Source of the DNA: Candidatus Omnitrophota bacterium
GTDB taxonomy: Bacteria; Omnitrophota; Omnitrophia; Omnitrophales; Aquincolibacteriaceae
NCBI GenBank assembly: GCA_043803685.1
Contig: JAZDJU010000043.1
Coordinates: 1 to 47,618 of the forward strand
Direction of reading: 5' to 3'
Length of the DNA: 47,618 nt
Shown: positions 7,851-35,498 of the stretch, piece after piece
How the letters are laid out: each line of letters starts with the position of its first letter
How positions within the stretch are numbered: the stretch's first letter is position 1
Notes under the pieces: model-generated
The model's database searches: none
Told to the model about the DNA's origin: nothing
Seen by the model: the letters and a program-made list of their open reading frames with translations, nothing else
Program-made: the position numbers and the translations under genes

Positions 7851-9296
7851 TCAGTTCCCGGTCTTCCCCTTCAGTAGCGCCTTTCCACTTCGCGTTTTTT
7901 CCAGCAAGGCAACGCGTTCAAAGACCTTGGGAACTTTGTATTTTGACAGACGCCGATAGCAGAACTTCCGCAAGTCGGACTCATCAAATAGGTCACTCCC
8001 TTTCCTCAACAAAATCTTCGCGACAGGTAGTTGCCCGTAAGAAGGATGATCGACCCCATAGACTTGAACCTCCTCAATCGAGGGATATTGCTGCAGAACA
8101 TTTTCCACTTCCGCTGGGAATATTTTCATCCCCATAAAATTGATCATCTGTTTCTCTCTTCCCATAAGGAAAAGGAACCCCTCAGAATCCAAACGGCCCA
8201 GATCCCCTGTGTTGAACCACCCGTCCGGTTGTAACTCGTGACGTGTTTTCCAAGGAGTGAAGTAGGCATCAAACATGCCGGGGCCTTTTACCTGGATCAC
8301 CCCAATGCCGTCCCCATCCGCCCGATCAATCCTCATCTCAAAACCGGGGAGGATCTTACCGACAGAACCTCGCTTGGTCATTTCACCTGAACTGTTAAGA
8401 CATGGCAGACCGACTTCAATAATCCCGTAAGCTTGCGATAGCTCCACATTAAATTTCTCATAGAACGCACGCGCGATCACTTCGGAAAGACGCGTGGCGG
8501 TAGACACCGCCCGACGGACCCCTGCCAGCATTTCGCGAGTAAAAGCATCTGAGGTTGTCATGGCCTGGTAATGGAAAGGGGTCGCATACATCCATGTGGC
8601 TCTGTGGTCTTTCAGGCCTTTCCACAAAGCCTCCGGGAAATCACGATTGCAAAGAACGATCGTTGCGGATCTTCTTAAAAAAAGAAGGATCGTTACAACG
8701 AAGTGGTAAGCCATCGACAGAACCCAAATAATGATATCGCCCGCCTTCACATCCAATCCGGCTGCGGCAGCATCCGTCCTGGCTAAAATAGCCTCATGCG
8801 AGAGAACCACCCCCTTACTGGAACCGGTCGTCCCGGAGGTGAAACGAATAAAGGCCGGATTTAAAGCAAAATAAGCATCCGGATCGAAGGCTTGCTCCTT
8901 CAAAAAAAATACTGATAAATTCCGATCAAAAAAGGTTCCCGCCAAAACCGGATCCTTTGCCGCTTGCCGATAGATCGTTCTATCATAAATAAGAATATGA
9001 ACACGCATTTCCTTCAACAGGGTTTCGATCTCGAAATCCGAGGAGGGATAAGGCACCGGAACCATCACCGCACCCACTGCCAGCACCGCTAACGTCACGA
9101 CGATATAATCCGTTCCTTCATGACATAAAAGCGCGACCCTCTGTCCCTTTTCAATGCGTTGGCTTCTTAATTCACAAGCCATGCGGTCAACTCCGGCAAA
9201 GAGCTCACGATATGATATGCTCCCGGACACATCTTTCACCGCGGTGGCATGGCCGAAAAGCTCCGTTTCCCGTCTTATAACATCAACAATATTCAT
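7851..9296 (-). CDS. Adenylate-forming acyl-CoA/acyl-ACP ligase (ANL superfamily)
   Basis: FTSGTTGSSKG, AYGIIE, WFNTGDLG, YKVPK, TRSGK. Confidence 0.92.
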   Translation of the reverse strand: MNIVDVIRRETELFGHATAVKDVSGSISYRELFAGVDRMACELRSQRIEKGQRVALLCHEGTDYIVVTLAVLAVGAVMVPVPYPSSDFEIETLLKEMRVHILIYDRTIYRQAAKDPVLAGTFFDRNLSVFFLKEQAFDPDAYFALNPAFIRFTSGTTGSSKGVVLSHEAILARTDAAAAGLDVKAGDIIIWVLSMAYHFVVTILLFLRRSATIVLCNRDFPEALWKGLKDHRATWMYATPFHYQAMTTSDAFTREMLAGVRRAVSTATRLSEVIARAFYEKFNVELSQAYGIIEVGLPCLNSSGEMTKRGSVGKILPGFEMRIDRADGDGIGVIQVKGPGMFDAYFTPWKTRHELQPDGWFNTGDLGRLDSEGFLFLMGREKQMINFMGMKIFPAEVENVLQQYPSIEEVQVYGVDHPSYGQLPVAKILLRKGSDLFDESDLRKFCYRRLSKYKVPKVFERVALLEKTRSGKALLKGKTGN

Positions 9297-10498
9297 TTAT
9301 TTCTTCTTTGGAAAGAATCGCCCGTTCTCAAATATGAAACCGCCGCACAAGCACTTGCCTCCCCAAGAGACATACACGGCCCCATCACACGCGTAGAGGC
9401 TAGTGCGCGGCTCGTAGCAGAAATACACCGTCCCGCCGCAAAAAGATTTGAAACATCCCGCGAACAAAGGCACCCAAGCGGGATATCATAATGATCTCCT
9501 GGTTTGAGATATTGATAGCACGGTCCCTTCTCGCGATCCCAAAATTCGATCGGCCATGCATTTTTCACAACCCCGCCCTTGAATTTCCGCGCCTGCAAAA
9601 CATCTTCTTCCGTCAGAGTATATTCGCCCACCATCCGCAACCCCTCGCGTTCCACAATACTCGTTCCCATCTCCTGGATAGTCGAACTTCGCAACTCCGG
9701 GAGTTTCTCAGACAAATACTGATGCAGCATCACAGCTTTTCCTCTGACGTCTGCGAGATCCTCATCCGGAAGAACACTTATTTGGCAAACCCCCTCCCAC
9801 TCGCGTCCGCTCGGTGTGAATGTCGCAAATCTGTAATAAAGAGCCCAATTCTTTTCTTTCACCGCTTGGGCTATCCAATAGGGCACTTGAACATTAAGCA
9901 TCGCGTTCGAGCCCTGAAGATGTCCCAGATGAAAACTGTATCCTGCAAGCTGACGGTCCTCAAGCGGTGCTATTTCACAGGCGGCGCCACTCAACCGGAT
10001 GGCAGCACCCTCTCCGCTACAATCGATCACCGCGCCAGGGCGGACAACAGACTCACCCTCAGACCCGCGCAGTGTCACTTGGGAGATCTTATCGCCATCC
10101 CTCCGGACCGAAATAACCTGGTTCTTTCGGAGAAGTGTCACGGCGTCCTCAGCGGCCAGCATCAACTCAAAAACATCGCAGAGATCTTTGGGAGAAAACG
10201 GCAAGACATAGACCCGGCCCATTTTGACGATCCCCCTCCCGGGTTCTCTCGTCGTCAAGTGCTCGGAGACCTCCCGAGCGATACCCTCATTGAGCGTCGC
10301 GGAGGGAGTTTCAGCCCCATTCGCGTAAAAACCACAGACATAACGGTGCATACCCACAACAGCTGAACCGCCCAAAAAGTCATTTTTTTCGACAAGGATC
10401 GTTCTCGCTCCGCCACGCGCGGCCGCGATCGCCGCCGCCACCCCGGCCACCCCAGCACCCACCACAAGAACGTCACACCCTTTTGTTTCCGGTCTCAC
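9293..10498 (-). CDS. FAD-dependent oxidoreductase (FAD_oxidored-type family)
   Basis: DVLVVGAGVAG, IDCSGEG, NLFAAGRCISA...STRVMGPCMSLGEA. Confidence 0.88.
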   Translation of the reverse strand: MRPETKGCDVLVVGAGVAGVAAAIAAARGGARTILVEKNDFLGGSAVVGMHRYVCGFYANGAETPSATLNEGIAREVSEHLTTREPGRGIVKMGRVYVLPFSPKDLCDVFELMLAAEDAVTLLRKNQVISVRRDGDKISQVTLRGSEGESVVRPGAVIDCSGEGAAIRLSGAACEIAPLEDRQLAGYSFHLGHLQGSNAMLNVQVPYWIAQAVKEKNWALYYRFATFTPSGREWEGVCQISVLPDEDLADVRGKAVMLHQYLSEKLPELRSSTIQEMGTSIVEREGLRMVGEYTLTEEDVLQARKFKGGVVKNAWPIEFWDREKGPCYQYLKPGDHYDIPLGCLCSRDVSNLFAAGRCISATSRALASTRVMGPCMSLGEASACAAVSYLRTGDSFQRRNK

Positions 10499-11796
10499 AT
10501 TCGCCTCAGCTCCGTGACGATGAGGTTCGCCTCTTCGTCACTCAGCATCCCCTCTAAATAGGACAGCACGACATTTAACTTTCCTTGAAATTGCGTAAAA
10601 AAAACGCCCACACCAGGAGGATTGGGAATTCTTGGCAAGTGACGGATGTTTAATATCTTTTTATCCATAAAACGATCGGCCTTAAAGACCGTTTCCCCCA
10701 TGGACGAAAAAGAAAATGAGGGCGGCAGTTTCCGCAGAAAACTTTGAAGCATACGCTCAAAAAGGGGTAAAGGCAGTATCCTCATCAGCATACTGGCCTG
10801 CTGCAAAAGCCACGGCGTTTTATGCTTCATCTGTTCATAGAGCTGCGCTTTAATGGAGATTATCAACTTGGGCAGATCTTCAAATTCCCCGGCTCGGATC
10901 CTGAAAAAGAAAAAAGACAACTGGTTGAAAAAGATCTTGGCTGGCCCCGCCTCCGATGCGCGCATATCAATGCTGACAGGTATCACCCAATCAGAAGCTC
11001 CGGACTTGCCACTTGAAAGGACACGACTCATGGCCCTTACCGTCACGGCCAAAGCATAAGGCAGGAACATCAAATAACCGGCTTGCGCCGTCGCACGCTC
11101 GATGATCGAGGACGTTTGATCTCGATCGAAAGAGAAGGCCAGAAACCGGTTTGCGAATGCTTTCCCTGATATCTTGGGCGACGTACCGATCGGAAGGTTT
11201 TCCGTCAACTTTATAAAATGGCGATTGATCTTTTTACCCGCATCAAACTTTTCTGCCCACGGGTCCAGATAAGCGGGTTCCAAGGCGACCGGAATTCCCG
11301 CCGCGCATCCTTCGAAAGATGACTGAAACTTTTCCAGAAATAATTCAGCCCCTTGGCCATCAAATAAGCGATGATCGAACGTAAACCCTAAAAAACTTCT
11401 CCCCGCGCATGCCACATGCAACACCTTGAAATATTCGCGGGTCTTCTGAAAAGGCAGGTTCACATCCGACTCTAAGGCTCGATGAGCCTCTTGCTCATCG
11501 ACAACCTGTACGGTGCGAAGATGTAAGGGGATATTCGGTGCCGACGAGGCTATCTTCCAAAAAGGGGCCGGATTAAAATCCCGGGAAGGAGCGCCGCCCA
11601 GATAGGGACAACGCGTCAGAAAGGCTGACAACTGTTCTTTCAGGACTGATGTATGTACAAGACCTTCCAGTTCAAAAACCACCTGGAATTGATTGCCGCA
11701 GCCTGAAGCGCGCCGGGTCATACGATGGAGGACTTGGATCGCCCAATCGATCCCGGTAAGGTAGTGTTTCTTTGAGGAATACGGGATCGAGGCCAT
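10495..11796 (-). CDS. Stand-alone condensation-domain / CoA-dependent acyltransferase-fold protein
   Basis: FDHRLFDGQG (HxxxDG catalytic motif); IPVSIDMR second-lobe motif; 433 aa. Confidence 0.75.
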   Translation of the reverse strand: MASIPYSSKKHYLTGIDWAIQVLHRMTRRASGCGNQFQVVFELEGLVHTSVLKEQLSAFLTRCPYLGGAPSRDFNPAPFWKIASSAPNIPLHLRTVQVVDEQEAHRALESDVNLPFQKTREYFKVLHVACAGRSFLGFTFDHRLFDGQGAELFLEKFQSSFEGCAAGIPVALEPAYLDPWAEKFDAGKKINRHFIKLTENLPIGTSPKISGKAFANRFLAFSFDRDQTSSIIERATAQAGYLMFLPYALAVTVRAMSRVLSSGKSGASDWVIPVSIDMRASEAGPAKIFFNQLSFFFFRIRAGEFEDLPKLIISIKAQLYEQMKHKTPWLLQQASMLMRILPLPLFERMLQSFLRKLPPSFSFSSMGETVFKADRFMDKKILNIRHLPRIPNPPGVGVFFTQFQGKLNVVLSYLEGMLSDEEANLIVTELRRM

Positions 11797-12048
11797 TCAA
11801 CCCATCGCGCTGATTCGCCGGGCCAAAGAGCCCAATGTTTTCACATCCTTAGGGCCAATGCCCGACTCCATCAGCTTCAGGTCAAAGTTCTTCTCGATCA
11901 CTACAAAAAGCTCCACGAGACTCATGGAGTTAAAACCCAAAAGATGCAGAGGTTCGTCGGGAGAGATCTGAGACGATTCGAGAGACAGGATGATCCCTGT
12001 CTCTCGAATCAACGTTTTCAACACTTCTTCCACGCTTCTCAGAGCCAT
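11797..12048 (-). CDS. Acyl/peptidyl carrier protein 3 (atypical GFNSM motif)
   Basis: 83 aa from ATG 12048: PDEPLHLLGFNSMSLVELFVVIEKNFDL...TLGSLA. Confidence 0.82.
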   Translation of the reverse strand: MALRSVEEVLKTLIRETGIILSLESSQISPDEPLHLLGFNSMSLVELFVVIEKNFDLKLMESGIGPKDVKTLGSLARRISAMG

Positions 12049-12055
12049 CGCAATC

Positions 12056-12625
12056 CTATTTCTGGATAAACGCAACCAGCCCTTTATCATCGAATTGAAT
12101 TTCAAAATTGACGAATTTGCTTTTCCAATACGTCCATGTGGAATCCGCCAAAGATTTGGTCCGATGCGTCGGAGGGTAGCCATACGCCATGAGAACGGCA
12201 TCCTTGCTCATCCCCACCGCAAGCGTCCCTGCCTTGATATTTTCCTTTTCCATCGGAGAAAACTTCGCGTAGTCAGCGCCGTCGAGCACGGGACCCGTGG
12301 AAAAATACCGCTCGAACAACTCGTCGCCTGCAACATCCATGAATTTCGGGATGCGGATCAATTTACATTTGATCCCCGTACGGATATCCTTAAATTGAAT
12401 TTCGTTTTTCTTTCGTTTCAGGATCTCCACTTGCGACCCCACCGGCACCATTTCCCCCTTGTGGTAGTTGGTGGTAAAAATCTTATCCGGGAACTCATAC
12501 CAGATATTGACCTTCGTATAACATTTCTCCCCTGGCGCCTTCGCCGCAGAACCTGCGGGAATAAACAGCAAACCGGACAAGACAAAAAACGCGATCCCCA
12601 AAGCCATCTTGCTTAGCGTCTTCAT
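12056..12625 (-). CDS. Secreted hypothetical protein with a BamE/SmpA-like C-terminal motif
   Basis: Signal peptide ending in SAA; GMSKDAVLMAYGYPP...WTYW; SD AAGGAG. Confidence 0.75.
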   Translation of the reverse strand: MKTLSKMALGIAFFVLSGLLFIPAGSAAKAPGEKCYTKVNIWYEFPDKIFTTNYHKGEMVPVGSQVEILKRKKNEIQFKDIRTGIKCKLIRIPKFMDVAGDELFERYFSTGPVLDGADYAKFSPMEKENIKAGTLAVGMSKDAVLMAYGYPPTHRTKSLADSTWTYWKSKFVNFEIQFDDKGLVAFIQK

Positions 12626-12662: not shown

Positions 12663-13625
12663 CTACTTCTTCAATTTCACACAGCACTTCTGTTGATTAC
12701 AGTCATACTTGATGCAATGGATCTCCCGAATTTCCATCGGGTTTGTTTCCGCAATGGCGCCCGAAGCATAGGCCCTCTGATTTCGCAGCATCAATGCTGC
12801 CGCCACGCATTGGGAACCGCTTCCCGTCATCATACTTCCAAAAATCGGAGAAAAATCAGCAACAGGAATCCCGGGAGCAACGGTCACATCATTCTCGATA
12901 ATGCGCATATCCGGGCATTCCTCAACGCCATCTTCTGCATTAAATGAAACGTCTGAAATAACGCCGTACTTCCTATGGGCGGGATCCGATGTTACCAGAA
13001 AAAAAACACCTCCTTCACCGGGTCCCACCGAGGTCTTACTGCCACAAGCCGAAGCCTGAGAACTTTGACTATAAATAGATTCGAACACTTGGCCGCATTC
13101 TTCCACGCATCCGACAAGAACGCGCTCGCACCGGCCTTCTGCCATCCAAGCCCCCGCAAGGAGAAGAGCTTCCTGAAAAGCAAAATCGAACTGAGTCACC
13201 GTAAGCGTCGGGCCCGTGCATTTTAAGACTTTCGCGATGTAGGACGCCGCGGCATTATGGATCGAATGAGAAAATGTGGTCGGGGAAACACTTGAGTCCC
13301 CGTAATCAAGAATGTCATCCAAAAAACGGAACGTTGTCGCGTGAGGTCCTAGCCCCGTGCAAAGAATGACCCCCATCGCGCCGTTCGAAGCACCACCGTC
13401 TCGGATCGCATCATGGGCCGCCAGTACGGCGATTTTACTGAACCGATCGGCCCGCCGGATATCCCACAAAACTTCCCGGTCCTCGAGAGCTTCCGGAGGA
13501 ATACGATGACAGGATCCGGATACTTTCGGAGGGATGCCACTTCCATTCAGCGCCTGTTCAAACCGCGCGAGACCCCTCCCCTGCGAACACAAAACTCCGA
13601 TCCCGGCAATGTTCATCGGGCCCAT
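12663..13625 (-). CDS. Ketosynthase-like chain-length-factor subunit (non-catalytic)
   Basis: RRADRFSKIAVLAA, SPTTFSHSIHNAAA; the catalytic Cys region reads TVTQFDFAF; no HGTxT. Confidence 0.85.
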   Translation of the reverse strand: MGPMNIAGIGVLCSQGRGLARFEQALNGSGIPPKVSGSCHRIPPEALEDREVLWDIRRADRFSKIAVLAAHDAIRDGGASNGAMGVILCTGLGPHATTFRFLDDILDYGDSSVSPTTFSHSIHNAAASYIAKVLKCTGPTLTVTQFDFAFQEALLLAGAWMAEGRCERVLVGCVEECGQVFESIYSQSSQASACGSKTSVGPGEGGVFFLVTSDPAHRKYGVISDVSFNAEDGVEECPDMRIIENDVTVAPGIPVADFSPIFGSMMTGSGSQCVAAALMLRNQRAYASGAIAETNPMEIREIHCIKYDCNQQKCCVKLKK

Positions 13626-14806
13626 GGAGCTTCTCCGTCAGACTTCGCGCATTCGATCACAAGAGCCGCATTATTCCCGCCGAAACCTAAAGACGTTGAG
13701 ACAGCATAATGCCCCGTCACGGCTGTTTTCGTACGTGTCGGCGCCATAGCGATTCCATCATCAAGCGTTTGAAAACCCGCGCACGGAGGGATCCATCCTT
13801 CATAAAGTGCCGCGGCACTGAACGCGGCCTCCAGGCCTCCTGCCGCGCCAAGCGTGTGTCCCGTAAATCCTTTGGTGGAATAGAACGGAACCTCTTTTCC
13901 AAAAACCCTGGAAAGAACTGCCCCCTCCACGCGATCATTGTCTTGCGTCGCGGTCCCATGAGCATTCACAAAAGAAACATCTTGAGCGCGTATCCCCGCT
14001 TCTGATAAAGCCCCGCGAATGGCTTTTTCCAAGCCCTCGCCTTGCGGAGCAGGAGCCGTCAAATGATGAGCGTCATTGGCCGAGCCGTATCCGCAAAGCC
14101 ACAGGGAAACTTTTTTCCTTCGCGCGTGAGCGCTTTTTCCTGTCTCAAGCACCAAAATCCCTACCCCCTCTCCTAAATTCAGGCCACTCCGGTCTTTATC
14201 GAAAGGCGCGCACAAAGAATCGCTAAGGATCCCCAGCGATCCGAACCCGCACAAAGGCACACGATTCAATTCATCAGCACCGCCTGCAATGGCGACATCG
14301 CACAAGCCCGCTCGCAACCATGACAAAGCAACGCCGATCGCATCAGCACCCGAAGTGCATGCGTTCACCACAGTCAGCGACGGGCCTTGCGTTTTCAGAG
14401 CCGAGGCGACAGCCCCGGAAAGATTGCCGTTCAAATAGCGGGTAACCGGATCCATGGAAACCTTCCCGGATTCACGATAAGTCCTGTAAAATTCAATATC
14501 ATTAAGCTGACTTGCGACCGTCGTCCCAAGACAAACTCCAACACGCCGGGTCGCCAGATCACTCCCCAAGCCGGCTGACCGCAACGCCTCTCCCACGGCA
14601 GACAAACAAAGACCCAACGATCTCATTTGAGATTGATCTTTTCCCTGAAGAAAAGACTTGGCTTCGAAAACAGGATAGCGGAGAGGGGTCGGGAACAAAG
14701 TGACAGGTCCCGCATTTCGTTTCCCCTGCTGAAACGTCTCGAGTGTTTCATGGATATTGCGGCCGGCCGCAGAAAGAACGCCGAGCCCCGTGATCCCGAC
14801 CTTCAT
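13613..14806 (-). CDS. Beta-ketoacyl-ACP synthase (KS3)
   Basis: VNACTSG, NAHGTAT, GHTLGAAG catalytic triad; alternative start 14830. Confidence 0.93.
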   Translation of the reverse strand: MKVGITGLGVLSAAGRNIHETLETFQQGKRNAGPVTLFPTPLRYPVFEAKSFLQGKDQSQMRSLGLCLSAVGEALRSAGLGSDLATRRVGVCLGTTVASQLNDIEFYRTYRESGKVSMDPVTRYLNGNLSGAVASALKTQGPSLTVVNACTSGADAIGVALSWLRAGLCDVAIAGGADELNRVPLCGFGSLGILSDSLCAPFDKDRSGLNLGEGVGILVLETGKSAHARRKKVSLWLCGYGSANDAHHLTAPAPQGEGLEKAIRGALSEAGIRAQDVSFVNAHGTATQDNDRVEGAVLSRVFGKEVPFYSTKGFTGHTLGAAGGLEAAFSAAALYEGWIPPCAGFQTLDDGIAMAPTRTKTAVTGHYAVSTSLGFGGNNAALVIECAKSDGEAPWAR

Positions 14807-14810
14807 CGGT

Positions 14811-15095
14811 TTATTTCCTGGTACTTTCATAGATAAAACGCGAAAGGGTATCTATGGAATAGAATATCTCCCGCCCCCGTTTCATGTCCCGGACATCTAG
14901 CCCGAAATTCCGTTGGAGCAAAACAACGATCTCCACAGCATCGAGCGAATCCAGTCCCAACCCGTCGCCAAAAAGGATCTCATCATCTTTGATCTTGAGG
15001 GGATCCAGCTCATTCAAAAAAGCCAGATTGCTGACAAGCAATTCTTTCAGCTTTTTGCGTATCGTTTCGAGATCCTCACCTTTACTGATCGTCAT
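14811..15095 (-). CDS. Acyl carrier protein 2 (aryl-polyene-type)
   Basis: LFGDGLGLDSLDAVE; SD AAGGAG before ATG 15095. Confidence 0.92.
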   Translation of the reverse strand: MTISKGEDLETIRKKLKELLVSNLAFLNELDPLKIKDDEILFGDGLGLDSLDAVEIVVLLQRNFGLDVRDMKRGREIFYSIDTLSRFIYESTRK

Positions 15096-20454: not shown

Positions 20455-20464
20455 AGAGGGACCG

Positions 20465-21594: not shown

Positions 21595-21722
21595 AAATGT
21601 CTCCTTCACTGAGCGTTCTTCAAAACTAATGTTGCGTTATCCCTCGACCGAATCAGCGGTGTTTCCCAAAGTAATGTTTTTTTCAACGCTCTTTTCCCAA
21701 ATAAAGACTATCCCGTGTTTTC

Positions 21723-22172: not shown

Positions 22173-22194
22173 CGCTATTTCCTCCCTTGGTTGT

Positions 22195-27278: not shown

Positions 27279-27948
27279 GGGGCTTCGCCTCCCAGGTCTT
27301 ATCCTCCAGGGCCGCATCCAGAACCGTATCCTTGAACATGAGCAGAGTCCTGTCCCCGGATTTTTCATCCATCTGGATCTGTTCGATGTATCTTAGATCC
27401 TTCTGAAAGGTCACCGTGATCTTCGTCATGACTCGGGATACGATCGTGGACTCGCGAGGCACAAACTCTAGAGAAACCGGGTCTTGGGAAAGGATCCGGA
27501 TCTGATATTCCGCCAACATCTGCAGGTAGGGTCCATAAAACCATTTCTGGATCTGTTCCACAATGATATCCACCGCGTTACTTCCAAACACTGACAACTC
27601 CCGGACTTTGTCCGTATCCTCATCCCATTGAAAAATCTTCTTTCCCCGCATCACGATCGCGTAATGCATCGGGGCCTCCACGCGCCAGGCAAAGCGCATC
27701 GGAGTCTTTTGTATCGCAACGGTCCCTTTCAGCATGATTTTATTCTGAAAGATCTTCAGTTCTTTTTCCTGGACGAATTGAGCCGTCAGCGTACGTATCG
27801 CCCCCATCTTTTGGTCCAGCTCCGTCAAGATCGACCGCACGGATACTTGAGGGTCCTTTGCTTCATCAGCCCAAGACTGCGGCTGCGCACCTCCAGCGAA
27901 AAGCATGCCCAGCAAAAGAAATGTCCCCCATCGAATCGGGAACTTCAT
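27271..27948 (-). CDS. LolA-like periplasmic lipid/lipoprotein carrier
   Basis: Signal peptide; LTAQFVQEK...G...FAWRVEAP; EKSGDRTLLMF. Confidence 0.85.
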   Translation of the reverse strand: MKFPIRWGTFLLLGMLFAGGAQPQSWADEAKDPQVSVRSILTELDQKMGAIRTLTAQFVQEKELKIFQNKIMLKGTVAIQKTPMRFAWRVEAPMHYAIVMRGKKIFQWDEDTDKVRELSVFGSNAVDIIVEQIQKWFYGPYLQMLAEYQIRILSQDPVSLEFVPRESTIVSRVMTKITVTFQKDLRYIEQIQMDEKSGDRTLLMFKDTVLDAALEDKTWEAKPRE

Positions 27949-29450
27949 AAACGCTCCTCGGTTTTGGTCGCCTTGTCCTCAACGGAATGCCAAACCTTGA
28001 TCTCCCCCCGCGCAACGATCTTTCCGCCGCAGGACACAGAACCTTCCACAATGCCAAACTCACCATACTGCGCGCTCTTGAAAACAGAGACTTCCAAAAC
28101 GTCGCCCACCCGCACGCTTCCGAGAACCTCGATCTTTTTAGCGCCTATTAAAAAACCGGTTTGGCGCCGGCATTCCTCATCGGACAGCCTGAAACCATTC
28201 CCCGCGGCGATCGCCTGAGCGATCAACTCCAGATAAACAGATTCCTCAAGCGTGCCATCCTCCCTTACAAAAAGATTGTCGGCTGTAATAGTCACCTTCA
28301 CTTTCGCGGCCCTCTCGCCGATCCACACGAGCTCGTCCACCATCTTCATGGGTTTAGCCTGCGGGATCAAACGGTCTACCGCCACCGGCAGCCGGACGAT
28401 CTCATCCTGCTTCTCTTGATTTTTCCAACACAAAGGATCCGAAGCCAAATAATCCCCTGTCAGCTGATAAGCGGCACCCCGGCACCCATAACAAAAATCC
28501 GCTTTTTCGCAGGAGCCGCAAGGCCCTTTGATCTTCTTGCCGTGATCTTTGAGATCTTCCAGAACCTCGCTATCTTGCAGGATCATCTTGAGTTTGTTTT
28601 CCCGGATGTCCCCCAAGGGGATATTGACTCCGACACAAGGCATCACTTTTCCGTAGGCGTTGATGAAACAGGAGTACAAATGCCGGAGGCATCGATGCCC
28701 CACAAGAGGCGGCTGGGGTTCCCACTTCACCCCATACTTTTCCCGGTCGATCTCGGAGATCTTGAAAAAAAGATCTCGGATCTCCTCCGAGCTCACGTTC
28801 AGCCATTCATTATCATTGGCTCTCCCCTGAGGCGTGATCATCTCGAAATAAGGCGTGATCTTCTGGTCACGAAGCCAGCGCCAGAACTCAGCCAACTCAT
28901 CAATGTTTTGACGGCAAATGATCGTCCCTACACCGAGGAACTGTTTCTCCGTCGGATAGCCCGCTTCTTTAGCATTTTTCAATGCTGCTTGCACAACCTG
29001 AAAAGCGCCCTTTTGTCCCGCAAGCAAATTCTGTTTTTTCTCATCGAGCGTGTTCATCTTGAGAACAAGGCTGACCCCTAGTTCCAGAAGCCTTCTCGCG
29101 TTCTCAGGCGTGACATTGGAGCCGTTAGAGAAAATATGGCTCTCCATCCCTTCTTTTTGAATGAATTCCAGGATCTCGAAAAGATGAGGATAGATCATGG
29201 GTTCCCCGCCCAAGATAATGATGCGTCGCGCGCCCAGCTCCTTGGCTTGCAAAACCGCGTCGAAGATCTCTATTTTTGTCAGTTCCTTGATCGCTATTTC
29301 ATCGCCTGGGGCATAACAGTAGGGACAGCGGAAGTTACACGCACGGCTGAATTCGATCTCCATCGAAAGCAAGCGACCGTTTTGGACAGCCTCCCGGATC
29401 TCCGTGTCAGAAAATTCGACTTTGAAAATACCCCCAAAACAACCCGACAT
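27945..29450 (-). CDS. Radical SAM/SPASM protein fused to a C-terminal FabA/ApeP-like hotdog domain
   Basis: CNFRCPYC, LGGEP; SPASM cysteines (CLRHLYSC, MPC, CGSC..FCYGCRG..DPLC); C-terminal LIPQAKPMKMVD...ELIAQAIAA...GFLIG. Confidence 0.9.
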   Translation of the reverse strand: MSGCFGGIFKVEFSDTEIREAVQNGRLLSMEIEFSRACNFRCPYCYAPGDEIAIKELTKIEIFDAVLQAKELGARRIIILGGEPMIYPHLFEILEFIQKEGMESHIFSNGSNVTPENARRLLELGVSLVLKMNTLDEKKQNLLAGQKGAFQVVQAALKNAKEAGYPTEKQFLGVGTIICRQNIDELAEFWRWLRDQKITPYFEMITPQGRANDNEWLNVSSEEIRDLFFKISEIDREKYGVKWEPQPPLVGHRCLRHLYSCFINAYGKVMPCVGVNIPLGDIRENKLKMILQDSEVLEDLKDHGKKIKGPCGSCEKADFCYGCRGAAYQLTGDYLASDPLCWKNQEKQDEIVRLPVAVDRLIPQAKPMKMVDELVWIGERAAKVKVTITADNLFVREDGTLEESVYLELIAQAIAAGNGFRLSDEECRRQTGFLIGAKKIEVLGSVRVGDVLEVSVFKSAQYGEFGIVEGSVSCGGKIVARGEIKVWHSVEDKATKTEERL

Positions 29451-30751
29451 TAACTCCTCCTGTCAAAAAACCGCACGGGCTTTCTCGAATGCGATAAAAA
29501 AACTTTTTCTCTTATCTCTTTCGGGTCTTCGATCACCACCCGGGGCCTGACCCTCAGCCGTGCTGCCATCTGCTCTTCCAGCCATGCCGCCGTGACGCTA
29601 GGCTCTTTAACCGCCACATGGACCGTCAACTGATCCGACAGGTCCGCTTCACGAAAAACCACCACGCAATAATCAAGCACCTGCTCGATCCCGTCTAACA
29701 CGGCATATACAGACTGCGGATAGAGAGACGTTCCTTTGACTTTCATGAGCTGATTTTTCCGTCCTAAGATCGGCCCCAGACGCGGAGAGAATCGGCCGCA
29801 CTTGCAAGGCTTGTCGATCAAAAAGCTGATGTCTCCCGTTTTGTAACGGATCAAAGGCATTCCTTCCACCGCCATAGGGGTCATCACCACTTCGCCCACA
29901 TCGCCTGCCGGCAAAACATGCCCCTCCTCGTCAACGATCTCCACAAGGGCCAATTCCGGAAGCAAATGCCCGCCTTCCTGAGCCGTACATTCACAAAAAG
30001 TTGTGACCGTCTCCGAGGAAGCATAAGTCGAAAAAACGCGAGCTCTCCATATCTCCTGCAACTCTTTTCCGGTTCCCGTTAATGCAAGGTTTTGATCGCG
30101 CACGGGTTCTCCGATGCAGATCAGCCTGGCGATGCCCGCTTTGTCAGGGGCGATCCCCGTCTCTTTCAGATGCAGTCCCAGTTTCTTTAAAAAGGTCGGA
30201 ACTCCGACAATCACCGTCGGCTTCATCTTCTTGATGATGGCGGCATGACTTTCGAGACTCCCATGTCCGTTCCGGATCGAGGCCGCGCCAAGACGTCGCA
30301 TCCCCAGAAAATAGGCCAATCCTGCCACAAAGCACCGGTCGAGCGTGCAGGTCAAAAGGGCGATATCCCCCGCTTTCACCCCGCAAGCGGCGAAAGATTG
30401 CGCTTCGTTGTACGCCAGACGCTTCAAATCATTTTCCGTATAGACTATCTTGAGAGGTTCCCCTGTCGTTCCAGAGGACAACACCATATCCGCGATCGCG
30501 GATGGAGAGACCGCACAGAAACTTTCCGGATCTTTTTCGATATCGATCTTTTCGGTAAAGGGGAGCTGCTGCAACTGGCTGAGCTCTATGAGGCTTACAT
30601 CTAAGGGGAATTTTCCCAACTTTGTCCGATAGGCCGGTGAATGCTTTTTGCAATAGATAAGATGCTCGCGAAGACGCGCTGTCTGAGCCGCCACGATCGC
30701 TTCTTTCCCTTGAAAGGACACGCCCTGGTAGAGTTCCTGATCGATCAGCAC
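29450..30751 (-). CDS. Phenylacetate-CoA ligase (PaaK)-family aryl/acyl-activating enzyme
   Basis: LPFTEK, SSGTTGEP, TYASSE, PLIRYKTGD; start moved to GTG 30751 behind GGAGG. Confidence 0.9.
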   Translation of the reverse strand: MLIDQELYQGVSFQGKEAIVAAQTARLREHLIYCKKHSPAYRTKLGKFPLDVSLIELSQLQQLPFTEKIDIEKDPESFCAVSPSAIADMVLSSGTTGEPLKIVYTENDLKRLAYNEAQSFAACGVKAGDIALLTCTLDRCFVAGLAYFLGMRRLGAASIRNGHGSLESHAAIIKKMKPTVIVGVPTFLKKLGLHLKETGIAPDKAGIARLICIGEPVRDQNLALTGTGKELQEIWRARVFSTYASSETVTTFCECTAQEGGHLLPELALVEIVDEEGHVLPAGDVGEVVMTPMAVEGMPLIRYKTGDISFLIDKPCKCGRFSPRLGPILGRKNQLMKVKGTSLYPQSVYAVLDGIEQVLDYCVVVFREADLSDQLTVHVAVKEPSVTAAWLEEQMAARLRVRPRVVIEDPKEIREKVFLSHSRKPVRFFDRRS

Positions 30752-31497
30752 GCCGCCTCCATCACTTCGATTTCCTTCTGGATCATATCCCGGACCTTGT
30801 TTTTCAAATGAAAAGGCGTCAAGGATCCATAGTCTTCCCACTTGAGCGCTGGCAACTTATGGATCTTCACCGTTCCAGGATTCAGGAGGCACGATCCGCG
30901 AGGCGGAATATTTTCATTCCCGGTAATACAAACCGGAACAATAGGACACCGCGCCGCCAATGCCACCCGGAAAATCGCCCCATGGAACGGCTTCAGAGTC
31001 CGGTTCCCCGATCGCGATCCTTCCGGAAATGCCACGATCGAAACTCCCTGCCCCAGAAGTTCGCAGGCTTTCCTTGAAAAATCCTCGAAAGACAGGGTGT
31101 TAATACTCAAATACCCGGCCAATCGCGCCATGATGCCAATGATCGGGATCCGGAACGGCCAGATATTAACCACCTGAACACCTTCCACCTTTAAATGCGC
31201 CACCAAAAATCCATCGGAAAAAGACCGGTGATTGCTAACATAAACACACGGGCCCATTTTCTTCCCCTCTTCATCGTCCCGGTATTCGATACGAACAAAG
31301 GGGAACGTAAAACAGCGCACCACCCCATACCCATACCCCAACATGATGGATCTGAGCCATTTTTGAGTCATCCGCTTTCCCGCCAGCAACCGGACTAAAA
31401 CAACGGGCACCGTCAGGACCAGCAAACATGCCAAGGTGAAAACAAGAAGAAGGGCATAGAACGTGATATTGAGTACGATCTTCTTCAGCAAAAACAC
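30745..31497 (-). CDS. PlsC-like lysophospholipid acyltransferase
   Basis: SNHRSFSD, FPEGSRS, PIVPVCI. Confidence 0.9.
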   Translation of the reverse strand: MFLLKKIVLNITFYALLLVFTLACLLVLTVPVVLVRLLAGKRMTQKWLRSIMLGYGYGVVRCFTFPFVRIEYRDDEEGKKMGPCVYVSNHRSFSDGFLVAHLKVEGVQVVNIWPFRIPIIGIMARLAGYLSINTLSFEDFSRKACELLGQGVSIVAFPEGSRSGNRTLKPFHGAIFRVALAARCPIVPVCITGNENIPPRGSCLLNPGTVKIHKLPALKWEDYGSLTPFHLKNKVRDMIQKEIEVMEAAC

Positions 31498-31498
31498 C

Positions 31499-31777
31499 TT
31501 ACCCCTGCTTCCCGACATCCGGCACAAGACCTTCCGCTTTCAGAGTCAGCACGAAATGGTGCACATCCCCCAGGGTCCGGATCTGGCGAACCCTTTCATC
31601 ATCCCGGATCCGGACTTTAAACTGCTTCTGCAACGCCACGATCAGATCCACAATGTCGAGGCTATCGAGACCCAGATCCTCAAAGATCTTCATGTCGGGC
31701 TTCAGCTTGGCCCGCTCAATTTCAAAAGAATCCGCGAAAACAGAATTGACCCGGTCTACCACATCCTGATCGTTCAT
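31499..31777 (-). CDS. Acyl carrier protein 1
   Basis: EDLGLDSLDIVDL. Confidence 0.93.
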   Translation of the reverse strand: MNDQDVVDRVNSVFADSFEIERAKLKPDMKIFEDLGLDSLDIVDLIVALQKQFKVRIRDDERVRQIRTLGDVHHFVLTLKAEGLVPDVGKQG

Positions 31778-31795: not shown

Positions 31796-33019
31796 TTAGC
31801 CCCACTTCTTACAAATAAGTGACGCGTTAATTCCGCCAAATGCAAAACAGTTCTTAAGGACAACATCGATCTTTTTCTTCAGAGGTTCCATCACGTGTTG
31901 GATCCCCTCACACTCCTTCGCCACGGTTTTAAGATTCAACGTAGGATAGATGCGCTCCTTTTGCATCATCACAAGCGATGCGATCAATTCCAACGCCCCC
32001 GAGGCTCCAAGGGTGTGTCCCATATACCCTTTCAAGGAACTCACGGGGATACCGCTTCCAAAAACATCCTTGATCGCTTCCGCTTCCGCCTGGTCCCCTT
32101 GAACGGTCGCGGTCGCATGCGCGTTAATGTAATCCACTTCTTTGGCGGGGATCCCTGCATCCTGCAAAGTCCGCTCCATGCAGTTTAAAATGCCTTGTCG
32201 ATTTGATTCACTGACATGTTCCCCGCTCCCGCAAGTCGAATAACCGACCACCTCCGCGAAGATCTTTGCGCCCCGCTGCAGCGCGTGCTCACTTTCTTCA
32301 AGCACCAACACACCGGCTCCCTCCCCGCAGACAAGCCCGTCGCGTTTTTCATCAAATGGCCGCGGTGAAAGTTGCGGTTTATCGTTGTAATGGGTGGAAG
32401 TCGCAAAAAGGATATCGAAAGTTGCGGCCACGATCGGATGAAGCTCCTCCGCGCCGCCGCATAAAAGAACCTCCTGCCTGCCGGAACGGATCAATTCAAA
32501 TCCCGTCCCCAGCGCCTGGAGAGCGGAAGCGCACGCCGCCGAGGTCGCCAAAACATACCCCGTAATTCCAAAACGCTGCGCGACATTCATCGCGGCCGTA
32601 TGCGACATGCACTGAAAAAATCTCATGGAAGAAAGTTGGGCCAGATCCTTATCCGGCAGCAATAGCTCAAAAGTGTCATTCATCGCCTCGACGCCGCCCA
32701 TCGTGGAACCAAGAATGCATCCCGTACGGCCTGAGGTCACATCCGCCGGGCTCAGTCCCGCTTCTTGAATTGCCTGTTCTGCGGCCTGCACCGCGAAAAT
32801 ACTCAGTCGTCCCATGGAACGCCTGTTTTTGCGCGGGATCGCCATTTCATTTTTGAGTTCCGCGGGAGCCCCGATCAGACAATGGAGCCCTTTGTACCGG
32901 TCCCATCCTTCCATGAATCGCACCGCGGTCTTCCCGAGTTCCATCCCGTTGACCATTGCGGCCACGTTTTCGCCCAGAGGAGAAACCGCCCCCATCCCCG
33001 TGATCACAACACGTTTCAT
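31796..33019 (-). CDS. Beta-ketoacyl-ACP synthase (KS1, FabB/F-like)
   Basis: RVVITGMG, SAACAS, NAHATAT, GHTLGASG, FAFGGIN. Confidence 0.95.
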   Translation of the reverse strand: MKRVVITGMGAVSPLGENVAAMVNGMELGKTAVRFMEGWDRYKGLHCLIGAPAELKNEMAIPRKNRRSMGRLSIFAVQAAEQAIQEAGLSPADVTSGRTGCILGSTMGGVEAMNDTFELLLPDKDLAQLSSMRFFQCMSHTAAMNVAQRFGITGYVLATSAACASALQALGTGFELIRSGRQEVLLCGGAEELHPIVAATFDILFATSTHYNDKPQLSPRPFDEKRDGLVCGEGAGVLVLEESEHALQRGAKIFAEVVGYSTCGSGEHVSESNRQGILNCMERTLQDAGIPAKEVDYINAHATATVQGDQAEAEAIKDVFGSGIPVSSLKGYMGHTLGASGALELIASLVMMQKERIYPTLNLKTVAKECEGIQHVMEPLKKKIDVVLKNCFAFGGINASLICKKWG

Positions 33020-34512
33020 ACGCGACTCCTCGTATCCATAAATTGTTCGTACACTTCTTTCCCGAGGATCGAGCGAGCAACGATAAAAGCGGACATCATG
33101 GCTCCCAACAACCCCGGAAGCAGCGCGCTCTGCCCTGCCACATAAATATTCCGGTAGGGTAATTTCCCGAAAAGATTGTATTGTCCCATTTTCTGTTTCA
33201 CGCCATAGGCCGTTCCATCATAGGAGTGAAGATAATCCCGGAATGTCAGCATGGAGGCCGTATCAAGGATCTTTAAACGATCACGATACTGGGGATAAAA
33301 ATCCAGGATCCGCCGAACGATATCTTCCTCGCGTTCCTGTTTATAGGCGCGGTAGGAATCCGGCCGCTGCCCGACCGAGGAAGATTTCCACTCTTCCATC
33401 TGCTCGACAGAGGCAAGTTCCATGGCCGTCAATAATTTGCAGGATTTCCCTTTGAACATCTCTTCGCTCGTAAGAACCACCAATGCCGTCGGCCCACCGT
33501 TGGCAGGATCCATCATTCGATCCACATCGGGAACTGGAAATAGCGAGGTAATGCCCGGCTGAAAGGCTTCGGCCGAATCCTCGATCACCCCATACACCGA
33601 AAAAAAGCCGGACGAAGGCTCAAAACTATCCACGCGATCCAGAAACGCTTTACTCAGATGAGACTTCGGCAAAAGGCTCACCACCTCTTTGGGATGGATG
33701 GTAAAAGTACATTGATCGAAACTCACTTCCTCTCCCGTATTCAAGATGAACCGGCCCACCTGGTTTTCACTCACATCTTCGCAACTTGAAATATAACTAT
33801 TGAGCCGGAGATCAATATCCGAATACGCTTTCTGGTTTTGAAACGCCTTGATCACCGCATCGCCGCCATCCTTGATCCGCGAAACCCCTTCATAGAGGCC
33901 GTAAGCGACGCGACAATGGTTGGCAAAGGACACTTCCGACGGACGAACCCCATAGCACATCGCGTAGGTGGAAAGAATGCCCTTCAAATGCGGATGTTTG
34001 AACAAAGAATCCAATACCTGGCTCAGGCTTACAAAATCCTCGTCGGTAAAACCGGGCGCCTGCAGGTTTTTCCGGAAATCCAGCGAACGGTTCTGTTCAT
34101 AAACTTTTCTCGCCCTGTCAAAATACTGGTCGATCGCGTTATTTTCATCAGGGAAATACGACTTCAACTTATCCGTAAAATTCTTCACGCCCGGCGGCAG
34201 ATCATACGCCGCGTGGTCCCCCTCAAAAACATACCGGTTCGATCTTTCGTCCGCCAGATAAACAGGTTCGATCTCATCCCGGATCCCAAGCGCTTTGAAC
34301 ATTTCGGACAAAAGCCCGTCGCCGCAAAGCCCGCCTGTAAAATGGAACCCTGTATCAAAAGCCACGCCGTTCTTTTGAAAACGCGCGAGCCCCCCTCCCA
34401 CATGAGGCGCTTTTTCCACAAGAAGAACGGATCGTCCGTTCAAGGCGAGCAGGTACGCGAGCGTCAAACCGCTCGCTCCGGCACCCACCACGATATCGTT
34501 ATAGTGTTTCAC
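33016..34512 (-). CDS. Phytoene desaturase / retinol saturase-family FAD oxidoreductase
   Basis: VVGAGASG, FDTGFHFTG, GTAYG, AGQSALLPG. Confidence 0.88.
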   Translation of the reverse strand: MKHYNDIVVGAGASGLTLAYLLALNGRSVLLVEKAPHVGGGLARFQKNGVAFDTGFHFTGGLCGDGLLSEMFKALGIRDEIEPVYLADERSNRYVFEGDHAAYDLPPGVKNFTDKLKSYFPDENNAIDQYFDRARKVYEQNRSLDFRKNLQAPGFTDEDFVSLSQVLDSLFKHPHLKGILSTYAMCYGVRPSEVSFANHCRVAYGLYEGVSRIKDGGDAVIKAFQNQKAYSDIDLRLNSYISSCEDVSENQVGRFILNTGEEVSFDQCTFTIHPKEVVSLLPKSHLSKAFLDRVDSFEPSSGFFSVYGVIEDSAEAFQPGITSLFPVPDVDRMMDPANGGPTALVVLTSEEMFKGKSCKLLTAMELASVEQMEEWKSSSVGQRPDSYRAYKQEREEDIVRRILDFYPQYRDRLKILDTASMLTFRDYLHSYDGTAYGVKQKMGQYNLFGKLPYRNIYVAGQSALLPGLLGAMMSAFIVARSILGKEVYEQFMDTRSRV

Positions 34513-34526: not shown

Positions 34527-35255
34527 TTATATGGCCAGACCGCCGTTAATTCCAATGACTTGTCCGTGGATATACATGTTCTTTTCGGTGCACAGGAAAT
34601 CGATCACAGAAGCGACATCCTCCGGAGTCCCGAACCGATGCAAAGGGATCAGAGGCATGATCTGATCTTTCGGCAGATCCTGGGTCATATCCGTTTCAAT
34701 GACGCCAGGCGCCACCACATTGACCAGGATATTCTTCTTTCCCACTTCCCGGGCCAACGCCTTCGCCGCTCCGATCAACCCCGCTTTTGCCGCGGAATAG
34801 TTGACTTGACCCGCCTGCCCGATCTCGCCAGAGGTCGAGGACACGATCACGATCCGTCCCTTTTTTTCGCGCAACATCGGAAACATAACCACACGCATCA
34901 CATTGTAAAAGCCGTTCAGATTTGTGGAGATCACGTCGTGCCATTCGCCGGGAGTCATAAATACCAAAACGTTATCCCGGGCGATCCCTGAGTTATAGAC
35001 GACCACATCGGGAGCCTGGGCTTCTGTTCGTTCTTTCAACGCCCGCTCTGTTTCCTCTTGGTTGGCGACATCGAACGCGAGGGCGTCACAAGCCCGCCCT
35101 ATTTTTTTCACCTCTTGGCAGACTTCCTTGGCCGCGTCATGATTGGAATGGTAGGTTAAACAAATATCGAACCCGGAGCGGGCAAGACGAAGCACGGTCG
35201 CTCTCCCAATCCCCCGGCTTCCCCCGATCACCAAAGCGGTTTTTTGTTTTTCCAT
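34527..35255 (-). CDS. fabG: 3-oxoacyl-ACP reductase (cluster-specific SDR)
   Basis: GGSRGIG, NSGIARD, NYSAAKAG, NVVAPGVIETDM. Confidence 0.93.
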   Translation of the reverse strand: MEKQKTALVIGGSRGIGRATVLRLARSGFDICLTYHSNHDAAKEVCQEVKKIGRACDALAFDVANQEETERALKERTEAQAPDVVVYNSGIARDNVLVFMTPGEWHDVISTNLNGFYNVMRVVMFPMLREKKGRIVIVSSTSGEIGQAGQVNYSAAKAGLIGAAKALAREVGKKNILVNVVAPGVIETDMTQDLPKDQIMPLIPLHRFGTPEDVASVIDFLCTEKNMYIHGQVIGINGGLAI

Positions 35256-35258
35256 TTT

Positions 35259-35498
35259 TTATCTCCTCACCATGGCTTCTTCCGTTTCAAACGATGATGT
35301 CACGACAGCAGACGAGTCGGACTCGATCGACCCTAGCACCTTCAAAAGGTCTTCTTTCTTGTAAAGACGATACCCATTGATCGGATTTCTGTGAGGCTTC
35401 AACTTATCCTGCTTGTCCCAATTCCGCAATGTCATGGGACTCACGCCCAATAGGATCGAAGCCTCTTTGATCCTCAGATACCCTTTTAAATTAGTCAT
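35259..35498 (-). CDS. Small MerR/excisionase-type (BldC-like) HTH DNA-binding protein
   Basis: YLRIKEASILLGVSPMTLRNWD...HRNPINGYRLY; no effector domain. Confidence 0.88.
   Translation of the reverse strand: MTNLKGYLRIKEASILLGVSPMTLRNWDKQDKLKPHRNPINGYRLYKKEDLLKVLGSIESDSSAVVTSSFETEEAMVRR

Follow-up and report, generated by a model that had tools for sequence, protein, structure and literature searches.

What product would an uncultured anaerobic bacterium make with 30 consecutive genes that combine ketosynthases, lipid-export proteins, and radical S-adenosylmethionine (SAM) enzymes? The question is raised by contig JAZDJU010000043.1 of a Candidatus Omnitrophota genome, 47,618 nucleotides that are called the window here. 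Genes g1 to g30 are numbered in transcription order on the minus strand, from position 35498 down to 7851, and coordinates below refer to that strand unless stated otherwise. The 30 genes form a real cluster on one strand. The reading that we prefer, and hold to be reasonably probable, places it in the widespread “ladderane-type” (TIGR04072) branch of the lipid clusters with type II polyketide synthases like those of the aryl polyene (ape) pathway, and predicts that it assembles a polyene-type outer-membrane glycolipid, tailors it by radical chemistry, and exports it. The product suggested earlier from the DNA alone, an exported, methylated or cyclized polyene glycolipid, is an inference.

The literature has covered this orphan family since 2009; the cluster adds another copy and no new kind of system. 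Among the biosynthetic gene clusters that anaerobes carry and that have no known product, the family is one of the most widespread, and its unusual enzymes are common to the candidate ladderane genes of anammox bacteria, a chemistry that has been open for more than 20 years.

An aryl-polyene-type scaffold on a single strand

All 30 open reading frames (ORFs) between 7851 and 35498 are co-oriented and tightly packed. When the longest-ORF starts are used, neighboring genes overlap at 20 of the 29 junctions and are nowhere more than 113 nt apart. An earlier reading made from the DNA alone (the sequence-only reading) had described 30 same-strand, mostly overlapping genes, and this description holds. 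Its domain list was also recovered when domain content was checked with Pfam and NCBIfam profiles, with two amendments: g1 is a MerR-type helix-turn-helix (HTH), regulator-like protein, and the second of two hotdog dehydratases is the C-terminal domain of g8, a radical SAM-SPASM protein.

The scaffold had been likened to that of aryl polyene (APE) and flexirubin clusters, and the comparison supports this. The ape core genes are the ketosynthases (KSs) apeO/R, acyl carrier proteins (ACPs) apeE/F, chain-length factor (CLF) apeC, dehydratases apeI/P, ketoreductase (KR) apeQ, and transporter apeM (bioRxiv 2020.12.19.423268, Fig. 1 legend). Their product is described, in the passages cited, as a polyene-acylated GalNAc-phosphoglycerol lipid (PMC8253772; bioRxiv 2020.12.19.423268). 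The cluster contains an ApeR-type KS (g4), two ACPs (g5 and g23; g27 is a further one), KR g2, dehydratases g12 and the C-terminal domain of g8, and an ApeM-type transporter with its partners. With the ape clusters of E. coli CFT073, Xenorhabdus doucetiae, and Acinetobacter baumannii and with the flexirubin (flx) clusters, it shares an ApeR-like KS, a candidate KS/CLF pair, two ACPs, a KR, two hotdog dehydratases, an ApeH/FlxY-like ligase, a thioesterase, PlsC- and LpxL-type acyltransferases, a GT2 glycosyltransferase, and LolA-like, MMPL, and DUF3261 export proteins.

The active, ApeR-like KS g4 (31796..33019; PRK09116, 457 bits) scores 361 bits against A. baumannii ApeR (PDB 7f27; PMC8358021) and 343 bits against a Paraburkholderia homologue (4ewg) versus ~263 bits against FabF-type enzymes. 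Within NCBIfam, g2, g7, and g9 each score best with a flexirubin model, in all three cases under the cut-off. The FabG-type KR g2 (34527..35255; adh_short_C2, 174 bits), which is ApeQ/FlxB-like, reaches 294 bits with FlxB (cut-off 340, not reached) and 292 bits with FabG NF004200 (cut-off 273). The PaaK/FlxY-like adenylating ligase g7 (29450..30841), a predicted ApeH-like starter loader, scores 438 bits with FlxY NF053551 (cut-off 520, not reached) and 155 to 172 bits with PaaK models. The LolA-like periplasmic carrier g9 (27271..27948), which is ApeL-like, matches PF03548 at 54 bits and LolA2_flexi at 83 bits, the latter under its cut-off.

Two further proteins complete the predicted export set. 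The ApeM-like MMPL/RND transporter g10 (24876..27368) matches PF03176 at 25 bits (cut-off 20.5) and an HpnN-like model at 101 bits, under cut-off, and the ApeN/LolB-like DUF3261 lipoprotein g11 (24202..24876) matches PF11659 at 30 bits. All three Pfam matches, PF03548 in g9 included, lie above the Pfam cut-offs. The likely start of g11 is at 24876 (25326 in the longest ORF), giving a 224-aa protein with an LGLSAC lipobox.

Chain processing and lipid assembly are represented by ACP g5 (31499..31777), assigned from PF00550 and a DSL motif; ACP g23 of PRK09184 type (14811..15125; PF00550, 31 bits; NF006617, 56 bits, cut-off of 70 not reached); the FabZ/FabA-like hotdog dehydratase g12 (23828..24205; PF07977, 32 bits); the ApeK-like 4HBT thioesterase g13 (23334..23810; PF13279, 63 bits); the ApeD-like PlsC-type acyltransferase g6 (30745..31527; PF01553, 71 bits); and the LpxL-type acyltransferase g22 (15082..16041; PF03279, 50 bits), which resembles the acyl part of ApeJ. 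The glycosyl part of ApeJ is resembled by g21 (16016..17242), a GT2 glycosyltransferase with a DUF2062 membrane domain (PF00535, 85 bits; PF09835, 42 bits) that also matches PpgS at 92 bits, under cut-off.

The cluster differs from ape in both directions. Neither an ApeB-type SAM methyltransferase nor a COG4648 membrane protein was detected in it, and ApeB is outside the listed ape core genes. More broadly, none of the 30 cluster proteins had a methyltransferase-family Pfam match at E <= 0.001 that would indicate a class I methyltransferase, and Pfam found no enoyl reductase among them. The additions are a predicted second KS/CLF pair (g14-g18), the CrtI-like g3, two B12-binding radical SAM enzymes, a radical SAM-SPASM domain ahead of an ApeI/ApeP-like dehydratase, and a carrier/condensation/flavoenzyme/ligase (T-C-Ox-A) tail. 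The CrtI/amine-oxidase-like flavoenzyme g3 (33016..34512; PF01593, 51 bits) scores 75 bits with crtI_fam, under cut-off, and 37 bits with a gamma-carotene desaturase (PDB 4rep). Neither g3 nor the tail flavoenzyme g29 showed likeness to known enoyl-ACP reductases in Pfam, NCBIfam, or solved structures.

Ketosynthases and their CLF-like partners

Three KSs (g4, g14, and g24) carry the Cys/His/His residues. Pfam, NCBIfam, and PDB matches identify g24 (13613..14830) as an active KS of the PRK09185 type; it adjoins g25 (12663..13625), a CLF-like subunit without an active-site Cys (PF13723, 42 bits) that weakly matches the ApeC chain 7f28_A (25.5 bits). Against solved structures, g24 scores 207 bits with Bacillus subtilis FabF, 190 with 9s5h_B, 187 with the ishigamide KS 6kxd, and 167 with 6qsp. 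Chain 6qsp_A we take to be ApeO.

The other active KS, g14 (22195..23370; PF02801 and PF00109), has a divergent N-terminus, and its C151, H284, and H319 are invariant across 13 orthologues. Its predicted partner g18 (19870..20454) is a 194-aa half-ketosynthase that resembles a miniature CLF, has no Pfam family and no conserved Cys, and lies directly 3' of g14 in most relatives. The AlphaFold2 (AF2) model of g18 (pLDDT 84) matched FabF and KS/CLF chains in Foldseek (E ~4e-6, TMq ~0.55). Complex modeling covered the pair g14 and g18, which reached an ipSAE of 0.94 versus 0.00 for the best of three controls. Among solved complexes, 116 of 157 attain this mark, as do 2 of 215 mismatched pairs, and the pass may reflect likeness to KS/CLF heterodimers because solved ones exist. 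Contacts were at least 97% concordant between the runs, with a partner pLDDT of at least 90. These data make g24-g25 and g14-g18 two candidate KS/CLF pairs.

Three radical SAM enzymes

A CxxxCxxC motif is present in each of three radical SAM enzymes, g8, g19, and g20. The first, g8 (27945..29450), fuses a radical SAM-SPASM part (residues 1-345; PF04055, 95 bits; PF13186, 35 bits; motif at C38) to an ApeP-like hotdog dehydratase (residues ~350-500). Its best NCBIfam match, AhbD/NirJ2, lies under cut-off at ~133 bits. The C-terminal 150 aa are ApeP-like by structure (Atlas TM 0.85-0.89) and reach Pfam at E 0.11, or 0.0011 in a free-standing orthologue. The same architecture fills whole Atlas clusters, for example, 100% of one with 82 members. 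Since the radical SAM-SPASM part is fused to a chain-processing dehydratase, it probably acts during chain growth, and the domain architecture points to radical chemistry that probably takes place on carrier-bound intermediates.

The second enzyme, g19 (18599..19873), is a divergent B12-binding radical SAM protein (PF02310, 34 bits; CxxxCxxC at C173). It is the most conserved protein of the cluster, with a mean identity of 73% over 13 orthologues; the corresponding values are 69% (KR), 58% (g20), and 37% (g28). Constraint in the cluster is strongest on g19, not on g20, the TIGR04072 enzyme. The best 119 g19 homologues listed in a public protein collection (its own protein excluded) share 70 to 88% identity and span several phyla. 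Among their named sources are Omnitrophota, Desulfobacterota, Brevinematales, Lentisphaerota, and a Pontiellaceae strain, and the sources call these proteins only “radical SAM,” “cobalamin-dependent,” or “hypothetical.” Together with the taxa listed in Atlas, these names tentatively point to Omnitrophota for the organism of the window as well. Because cultured carriers of close g19 homologues are present in public data, lipidomics is feasible beyond this uncultured organism.

The third enzyme, g20 (17229..18602), belongs to TIGR04072, “lipid biosynthesis B12-binding/radical SAM protein,” at 613.3 bits (cut-off 360; CxxxCxxC at C189). It is the sole TIGR04072 gene above cut-off in the genome, where 49 weaker matches are mostly B12-radical SAM paralogues. 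Its other matches are BzaD TIGR04385 (212 bits), Trp 2-C-methyltransferase TIGR04428 (154 bits), and the TsrM structure 6wte (128 bits). TsrM and BzaD, its nearest characterized relatives, share with g20 a B12-binding domain and a radical SAM core. In contrast to them, g20 lies far under the cut-offs of their families (450 and 500) and has a family of its own. Because these nearest characterized relatives methylate aromatic sp2 carbon and the cluster lacks an ApeB-type methyltransferase, the most likely role of g20 is cobalamin-dependent C-methylation of the head group or the polyene.

Genes of this kind also occur in other settings. In genome G000, contig C119 (9000-28999) carries one co-oriented array of 10 B12-radical SAM genes, 1 further radical SAM gene, 2 class I methyltransferase genes, and a GT2 gene. 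At E <= 0.001, the TIGR04072 model matches this genome 50 times, and C72, C37, C5, and C100 carry further arrays. Genome G310 has a second, isolated TIGR04072 gene (C2:404512-405798; 550 bits) outside any such cluster. It contains one in-frame TGA, which could mark a pseudogene or be a selenocysteine codon.

Conservation among relatives

The TIGR04072 profile was searched across 401 genomes of the same phylum, and ~30 kb around each match was compared with the 30 cluster proteins; locus L011, which duplicates one of the compared loci, was counted once. Matches above cut-off were found in 17 of the 401 genomes. Within the genus, the 19 other genomes had none; within the family, 2 of 65 genomes had one. 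As far as contigs reach, 15 of the 16 other TIGR04072 genomes keep the order g2-g14, g18, (g19), g20-g25, (g26), g27-g30. Gene order that is kept in 15 other genomes indicates that the arrangement is more than chance. The sequence-only reading had called the cluster a hybrid; the architecture is standard for a widespread family, so the novelty implied was overstated.

The exception is G233 (C39:1-24569; L047 and L066), which has a divergent version with a different gene order, a g20 orthologue that is 35% identical, and a free-standing 345-aa radical SAM-SPASM protein without the dehydratase domain. In two genomes of the same family that lack g19, the g8 orthologue is reduced to a 157-aa dehydratase. 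The full-length radical SAM-SPASM-dehydratase is found in all nine loci that have g19 and an assessable g8; the L010 stretch starts inside g8. The joint loss of g19 and the radical SAM-SPASM part may have been a single evolutionary event.

The tail g27-g30 had been described as appended to the cluster, and the comparison contradicts this. It is present in 10 of the 11 loci with enough downstream sequence, so g27-g30 are a fixed part of the cluster family and not an appendage. It is missing after g25 in L010, a relative at ~79% nucleotide identity that its submitter labelled Syntrophales. In five loci, g29 and g30 are separated by one or two extra B12-radical SAM paralogues.

The carrier/condensation/flavoenzyme/ligase tail

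The start and stop codons of g27-g30 overlap or abut. The tail carrier protein g27 (11797..12048) has its likely start at 12048 (12201 in the longest ORF), and this 83-aa form matches PF00550 at 32 bits. It is followed by g28 (10495..11796), a 433-aa free-standing protein for which no Pfam family was reached, condensation families included, and which is assigned as a condensation-fold acyltransferase from its HxxxDxxG motif and its fold. Its AF2 model (pLDDT 83.5, pTM 0.87) matched AzeD (8s6l; E 1.7e-21, TMq 0.73), the SrfA-C condensation (C) domain, and PapA5 (1q9j) in Foldseek, with E values ranging to 1.9e-17. Atlas lists PapA5 and condensation clusters as its structural neighbors.

In 11 g28 sequences, the motif F-x-H-[RK]-x-x-D-x-x-G has an invariant H142 and G149 and a near-invariant D146. 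Like PapA5 and the free-standing condensation-domain acyltransferases of nonribosomal peptide synthetases (NRPSs), g28 has a two-lobed fold and an HxxxD motif. Unlike HHxxxDG-type proteins, it has a single His of the HH pair (FDHRLFDG), and its adenylating partner g30 is FadD/MenE-like, unlike an NRPS amino-acid adenylation domain.

The flavin adenine dinucleotide (FAD)-dependent oxidoreductase g29 (9293..10498; PF12831, 259 bits) matches solved structures with its FAD-binding N-terminus alone. The FadD/MenE-like adenylating enzyme g30 (7851..9296) matches PF00501 at 184 bits and PF13193 at 60 bits. Two independent gene fusions support the view of the T-C-Ox-A unit as a fixed module. In one relative (L011:17976-20555), the g29 and g30 orthologues are fused in frame into an 859-aa protein; in one Atlas neighbor cluster of g28, 98% of 92 members carry a PP-binding domain, a T-C fusion.

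Relation to ladderane-candidate clusters

The sequence-only reading had also noted that a desaturase-like enzyme, PaaK, and B12-radical SAM enzymes together recall “ladderane-candidate” gene sets. The TIGR04072 score of g20 supports this, as does the set in Rattray et al. 2009 (PMC2649909), in the parts of that paper cited here. There, Kuenenia clusters for type II fatty acid synthesis are syntenic with clusters of Desulfotalea, Geobacter, and Pelobacter and contain SAM-radical enzymes, phytoene-dehydrogenase-like enzymes, phenylacetyl-CoA ligase, an oxidoreductase, and a glycosyltransferase. The same passages report polyunsaturated hydrocarbons and no ladderanes in Desulfotalea psychrophila (PMC2649909), and ladderanes are, in the literature excerpted here, reported only from anammox bacteria. 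Javidpour et al. 2016 obtained no product from the same Kuenenia genes in E. coli, and according to the cited passages, the CrtI homologues neither desaturated phytoene nor gave new fatty acids there (PMC4790861). The antiSMASH “ladderane” class is stated to build on Rattray et al. (PMC4489286), and “ladderane” clusters are listed, in the excerpt cited, without function in Desulfobacterota, Omnitrophota, and other phyla (PMC9902471). Passages of a 2026 review (PMC13459092) and a 2026 preprint (10.64898/2026.05.19.726425) still call the ladderane pathway unknown.

We compared the cluster with Kuenenia stuttgartiensis kuste3335-3352 and kuste3603-3608 and their Desulfotalea, Geobacter, and Pelobacter counterparts through the published gene lists, as excerpted in those sources. 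Common to both are a TIGR04072-type B12-radical SAM enzyme, a second radical SAM enzyme, a phytoene-desaturase-like flavoenzyme, a phenylacetyl-CoA-ligase-like enzyme, a glycosyltransferase, several FabF paralogues including an inactive one, FabZ, FabG, and ACPs. The counterparts in the cluster include g3, g7, g21, the KSs g4, g14, and g24, and the inactive g25 and g18. The excerpted Kuenenia lists name neither MMPL/LolA export genes nor a condensation-like tail, and they include SAM methylases that the cluster lacks.

Assignment of g12 to the amxFabZ type was rejected. It scores 30.7 bits with ordinary FabZ (5bux), compared to 23.5 bits with the Scalindua brodae structures 8ayb/7qv0 and 17.4 bits with the K. 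stuttgartiensis structure 8ayd, which are amxFabZ structures (PMC10139942).

A proposed pathway and its alternatives

A mechanism can be drawn by analogy with the ape pathway, as the excerpts cited describe it (PMC8253772; bioRxiv 2020.12.19.423268). The FlxY/ApeH-like g7 would load a carboxylic-acid starter, which may be aromatic, onto a carrier protein. The ApeR-like g4 and the KS/CLF pairs g24-g25 and g14-g18 would extend it with malonyl units, giving one or two chains on g5 and g23, and KR g2, dehydratase g12, and the C-terminal domain of g8 would process these chains. As no enoyl reductase is present, conjugated polyenes would result. The radical SAM-SPASM domain and g19 would act on carrier-bound intermediates, and g20 would C-methylate the head group or the polyene.

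Thioesterase g13, acyltransferases g6 and g22, and the GT2 enzyme g21 would then assemble a glycosylated lipid, which the MMPL protein g10, LolA-like g9, DUF3261 protein g11, and lipoproteins would carry to the outer membrane. The tail would handle a second acid, with g30 activating it on the dedicated carrier g27, flavoenzyme g29 modifying it, and the condensation-fold g28 transferring the second acyl group to a hydroxyl or amine by PapA5-like logic.

Several observations weigh against a radical-tailored polyene glycolipid of this kind. No gene for UbiC chorismate lyase (PF04345) or aromatic ammonia-lyase (PF00221), the usual aryl-starter sources, was found in the 91%-complete genome, and g7 falls short of the FlxY cut-off; both points leave an aryl starter unsupported. 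KS g24 is no nearer to 6qsp_A than to FabF, and amxFabZ is no better a match for g12 than ordinary FabZ. A role as methylase is drawn for g20 only from its nearest characterized relatives at 128 to 212 bits, well under the family cut-offs, and the best solved relative of g19 is a non-methylating dehydratase, AprD4, at only 23 bits. If g3 or g29 were reductases, which is possible, the polyene inference would be undone. Literature searches found no paper that names the product of the non-anammox clusters, and the hydrocarbons reported in the cited part of PMC2649909 from D. psychrophila, which has a related cluster, fit no APE lipid either.

Those hydrocarbons would suit the proposal of Rattray et al. 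that such clusters make polyunsaturated fatty acids or hydrocarbons anaerobically, a route in which desaturase-like flavoenzymes and radical SAM enzymes desaturate ordinary fatty acyl chains; the syntenic cluster of D. psychrophila and the presence of the CrtI-like g3 and the FAD enzyme g29 both speak for it. We consider this route unlikely here. A KR and dehydratases without an enoyl reductase, together with KS/CLF proteins, already yield polyenes without desaturases, the Kuenenia CrtI homologues described above gave neither phytoene desaturation nor new fatty acids in E. coli, and export and head-group genes suggest an anchored lipid and not a hydrocarbon. A mostly saturated, methyl-branched acyl glycolipid would arise if the B12-radical SAM enzymes methylated unactivated carbons and g3 or g29 were enoyl reductases. 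Methylation at sp3 carbon is known from many class B radical SAM enzymes, neither flavoenzyme has an assigned role, and the genome yielded no aryl-starter source, all of which would favor such a product. It is nonetheless improbable, as the ApeR-like KS, ApeP-like dehydratase, and FlxY-like ligase are specific to polyene pathways and neither g3 nor g29 resembles a known enoyl-ACP reductase.

Cyclization raises a different prospect, in which the radical SAM-SPASM part of g8, g19, and g20 would cyclize or cross-link a carrier-bound polyene, so that a bacterium outside the anammox group would make carbocyclic lipids, ladderane-like or other. The gene set shared with the anammox candidate clusters (TIGR04072, CrtI-like, KS/CLF, PaaK-like, and glycosyltransferase genes, as excerpted from PMC2649909 and PMC4790861) speaks for such a role. 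The radical SAM-SPASM-dehydratase fusion fits the model, outlined in the cited part of PMC13459092, that “rings form as the chain grows,” and the extreme conservation of g19, which has no assigned reaction, could be read the same way. Against this, ladderanes are reported only from anammox bacteria, and the passages cited from PMC2649909 record none in D. psychrophila despite its syntenic cluster. In addition, g12 is not amxFabZ-like, the nearest characterized relatives of g20 are methylases, and the family is far commoner than ladderanes, judging from the g19 homologues and the excerpt of PMC9902471. We therefore hold carbocycle formation to be very unlikely, and we doubt as strongly that the radical SAM-SPASM-dehydratase and g19 form C-C bonds on the growing polyene to give ladderane-related lipids outside anammox bacteria. 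If this were true, these widespread clusters would be a tractable sister system that could reveal how ladderanes are constructed. Finally, two or more unrelated neighboring operons, an ape-like one and an NRPS-like unit, might lie together by chance, as the absence of the tail after g25 in the close relative L010 would allow. This is exceedingly improbable given that the tail follows the cluster in nearly all evaluable loci, which span several families, that the g27-g30 codons overlap or abut, and that B12-radical SAM paralogues lie inside the tail in five relatives.

Comparison with relatives sharpens the tests that can be applied to the cluster. It singles out the radical SAM-SPASM-dehydratase fusion, the joint presence or absence of the radical SAM-SPASM domain and g19, the strong constraint on g19, the two candidate KS/CLF pairs, and the fixed T-C-Ox-A module.

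Accessory genes, transcription unit, and surroundings

Some cluster genes are less widely shared. The secreted protein g26 (12056..12625) has a faint BamE-like C-terminus (PF04355, E 0.0036, under cut-off) and orthologues in eight related loci. Lipoprotein-type signal sequences were recognized by eye in g15, g16, and g17. The Sbal_3080-family lipoprotein g15 (21723..22205) matches NF040519 at 124 bits (cut-off 80), and the small, weakly Sbal_3080-like lipoprotein g17 (20465..20878) matches it at 40 bits, under cut-off. Neither has an orthologue in the 16 related loci, and both are present in this window only. These two Sbal_3080-like genes (21723-22205 and 20465-20878) are insertions that separate KS g14 from g18, its predicted partner. 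Between them, g16 (20896..21609), a lipoprotein without a known family that was assigned by eye from a signal peptide and Cys, has orthologues in G366, G255, G090, and L010. The first gene, g1 (35259..35498), encodes a 79-aa MerR-type HTH protein (PF00376, 44 bits), a likely regulator with an orthologue in one related locus, G090.

A terminator-like hairpin with a 12-bp stem and a T-run (35686..35716) ends the upstream gene and forms the 5' border of the cluster's transcription unit. The single promoter that the sequence-only reading had placed ahead of the cluster was not recovered, as 0 sigma-70-like sites were found in 35200-36400 versus 0.9 expected. Downstream of g30, which abuts a convergent alcohol-dehydrogenase gene, no terminator-like site was found. 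From the arrangement of the genes, it is plausible that all 30 form a single transcription unit. A look-up of sequencing runs for window positions 16016-22205 listed neither RNA nor other runs.

The window is the whole of contig C43 in a 2.89-Mb bin of 133 contigs (91% complete, 6.6% contamination). Judged by composition, mis-binning was rejected and C43 is typical of the bin: it ranks 15 of 64 in tetranucleotide distance from the bin mean, with a GC content of 0.517 versus 0.522.

Upstream of the cluster, positions 37193-44125 (minus strand) encode two PAS-rich histidine kinases and three single-domain response regulators. In L010, a kinase/regulator pair lies directly after the cluster (19800-21000) and is ~51% identical to window positions 37196-38265. 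The kinase and regulator genes near the cluster may constitute a cluster-linked two-component system. At the far end of the window, one ORF on the plus strand (45301-47616) runs off the contig and combines CoA-disulfide-reductase-like Pyr_redox_2, rhodanese, TusA, and DsrE-like parts; it looks like a sulfur-transfer multidomain protein.

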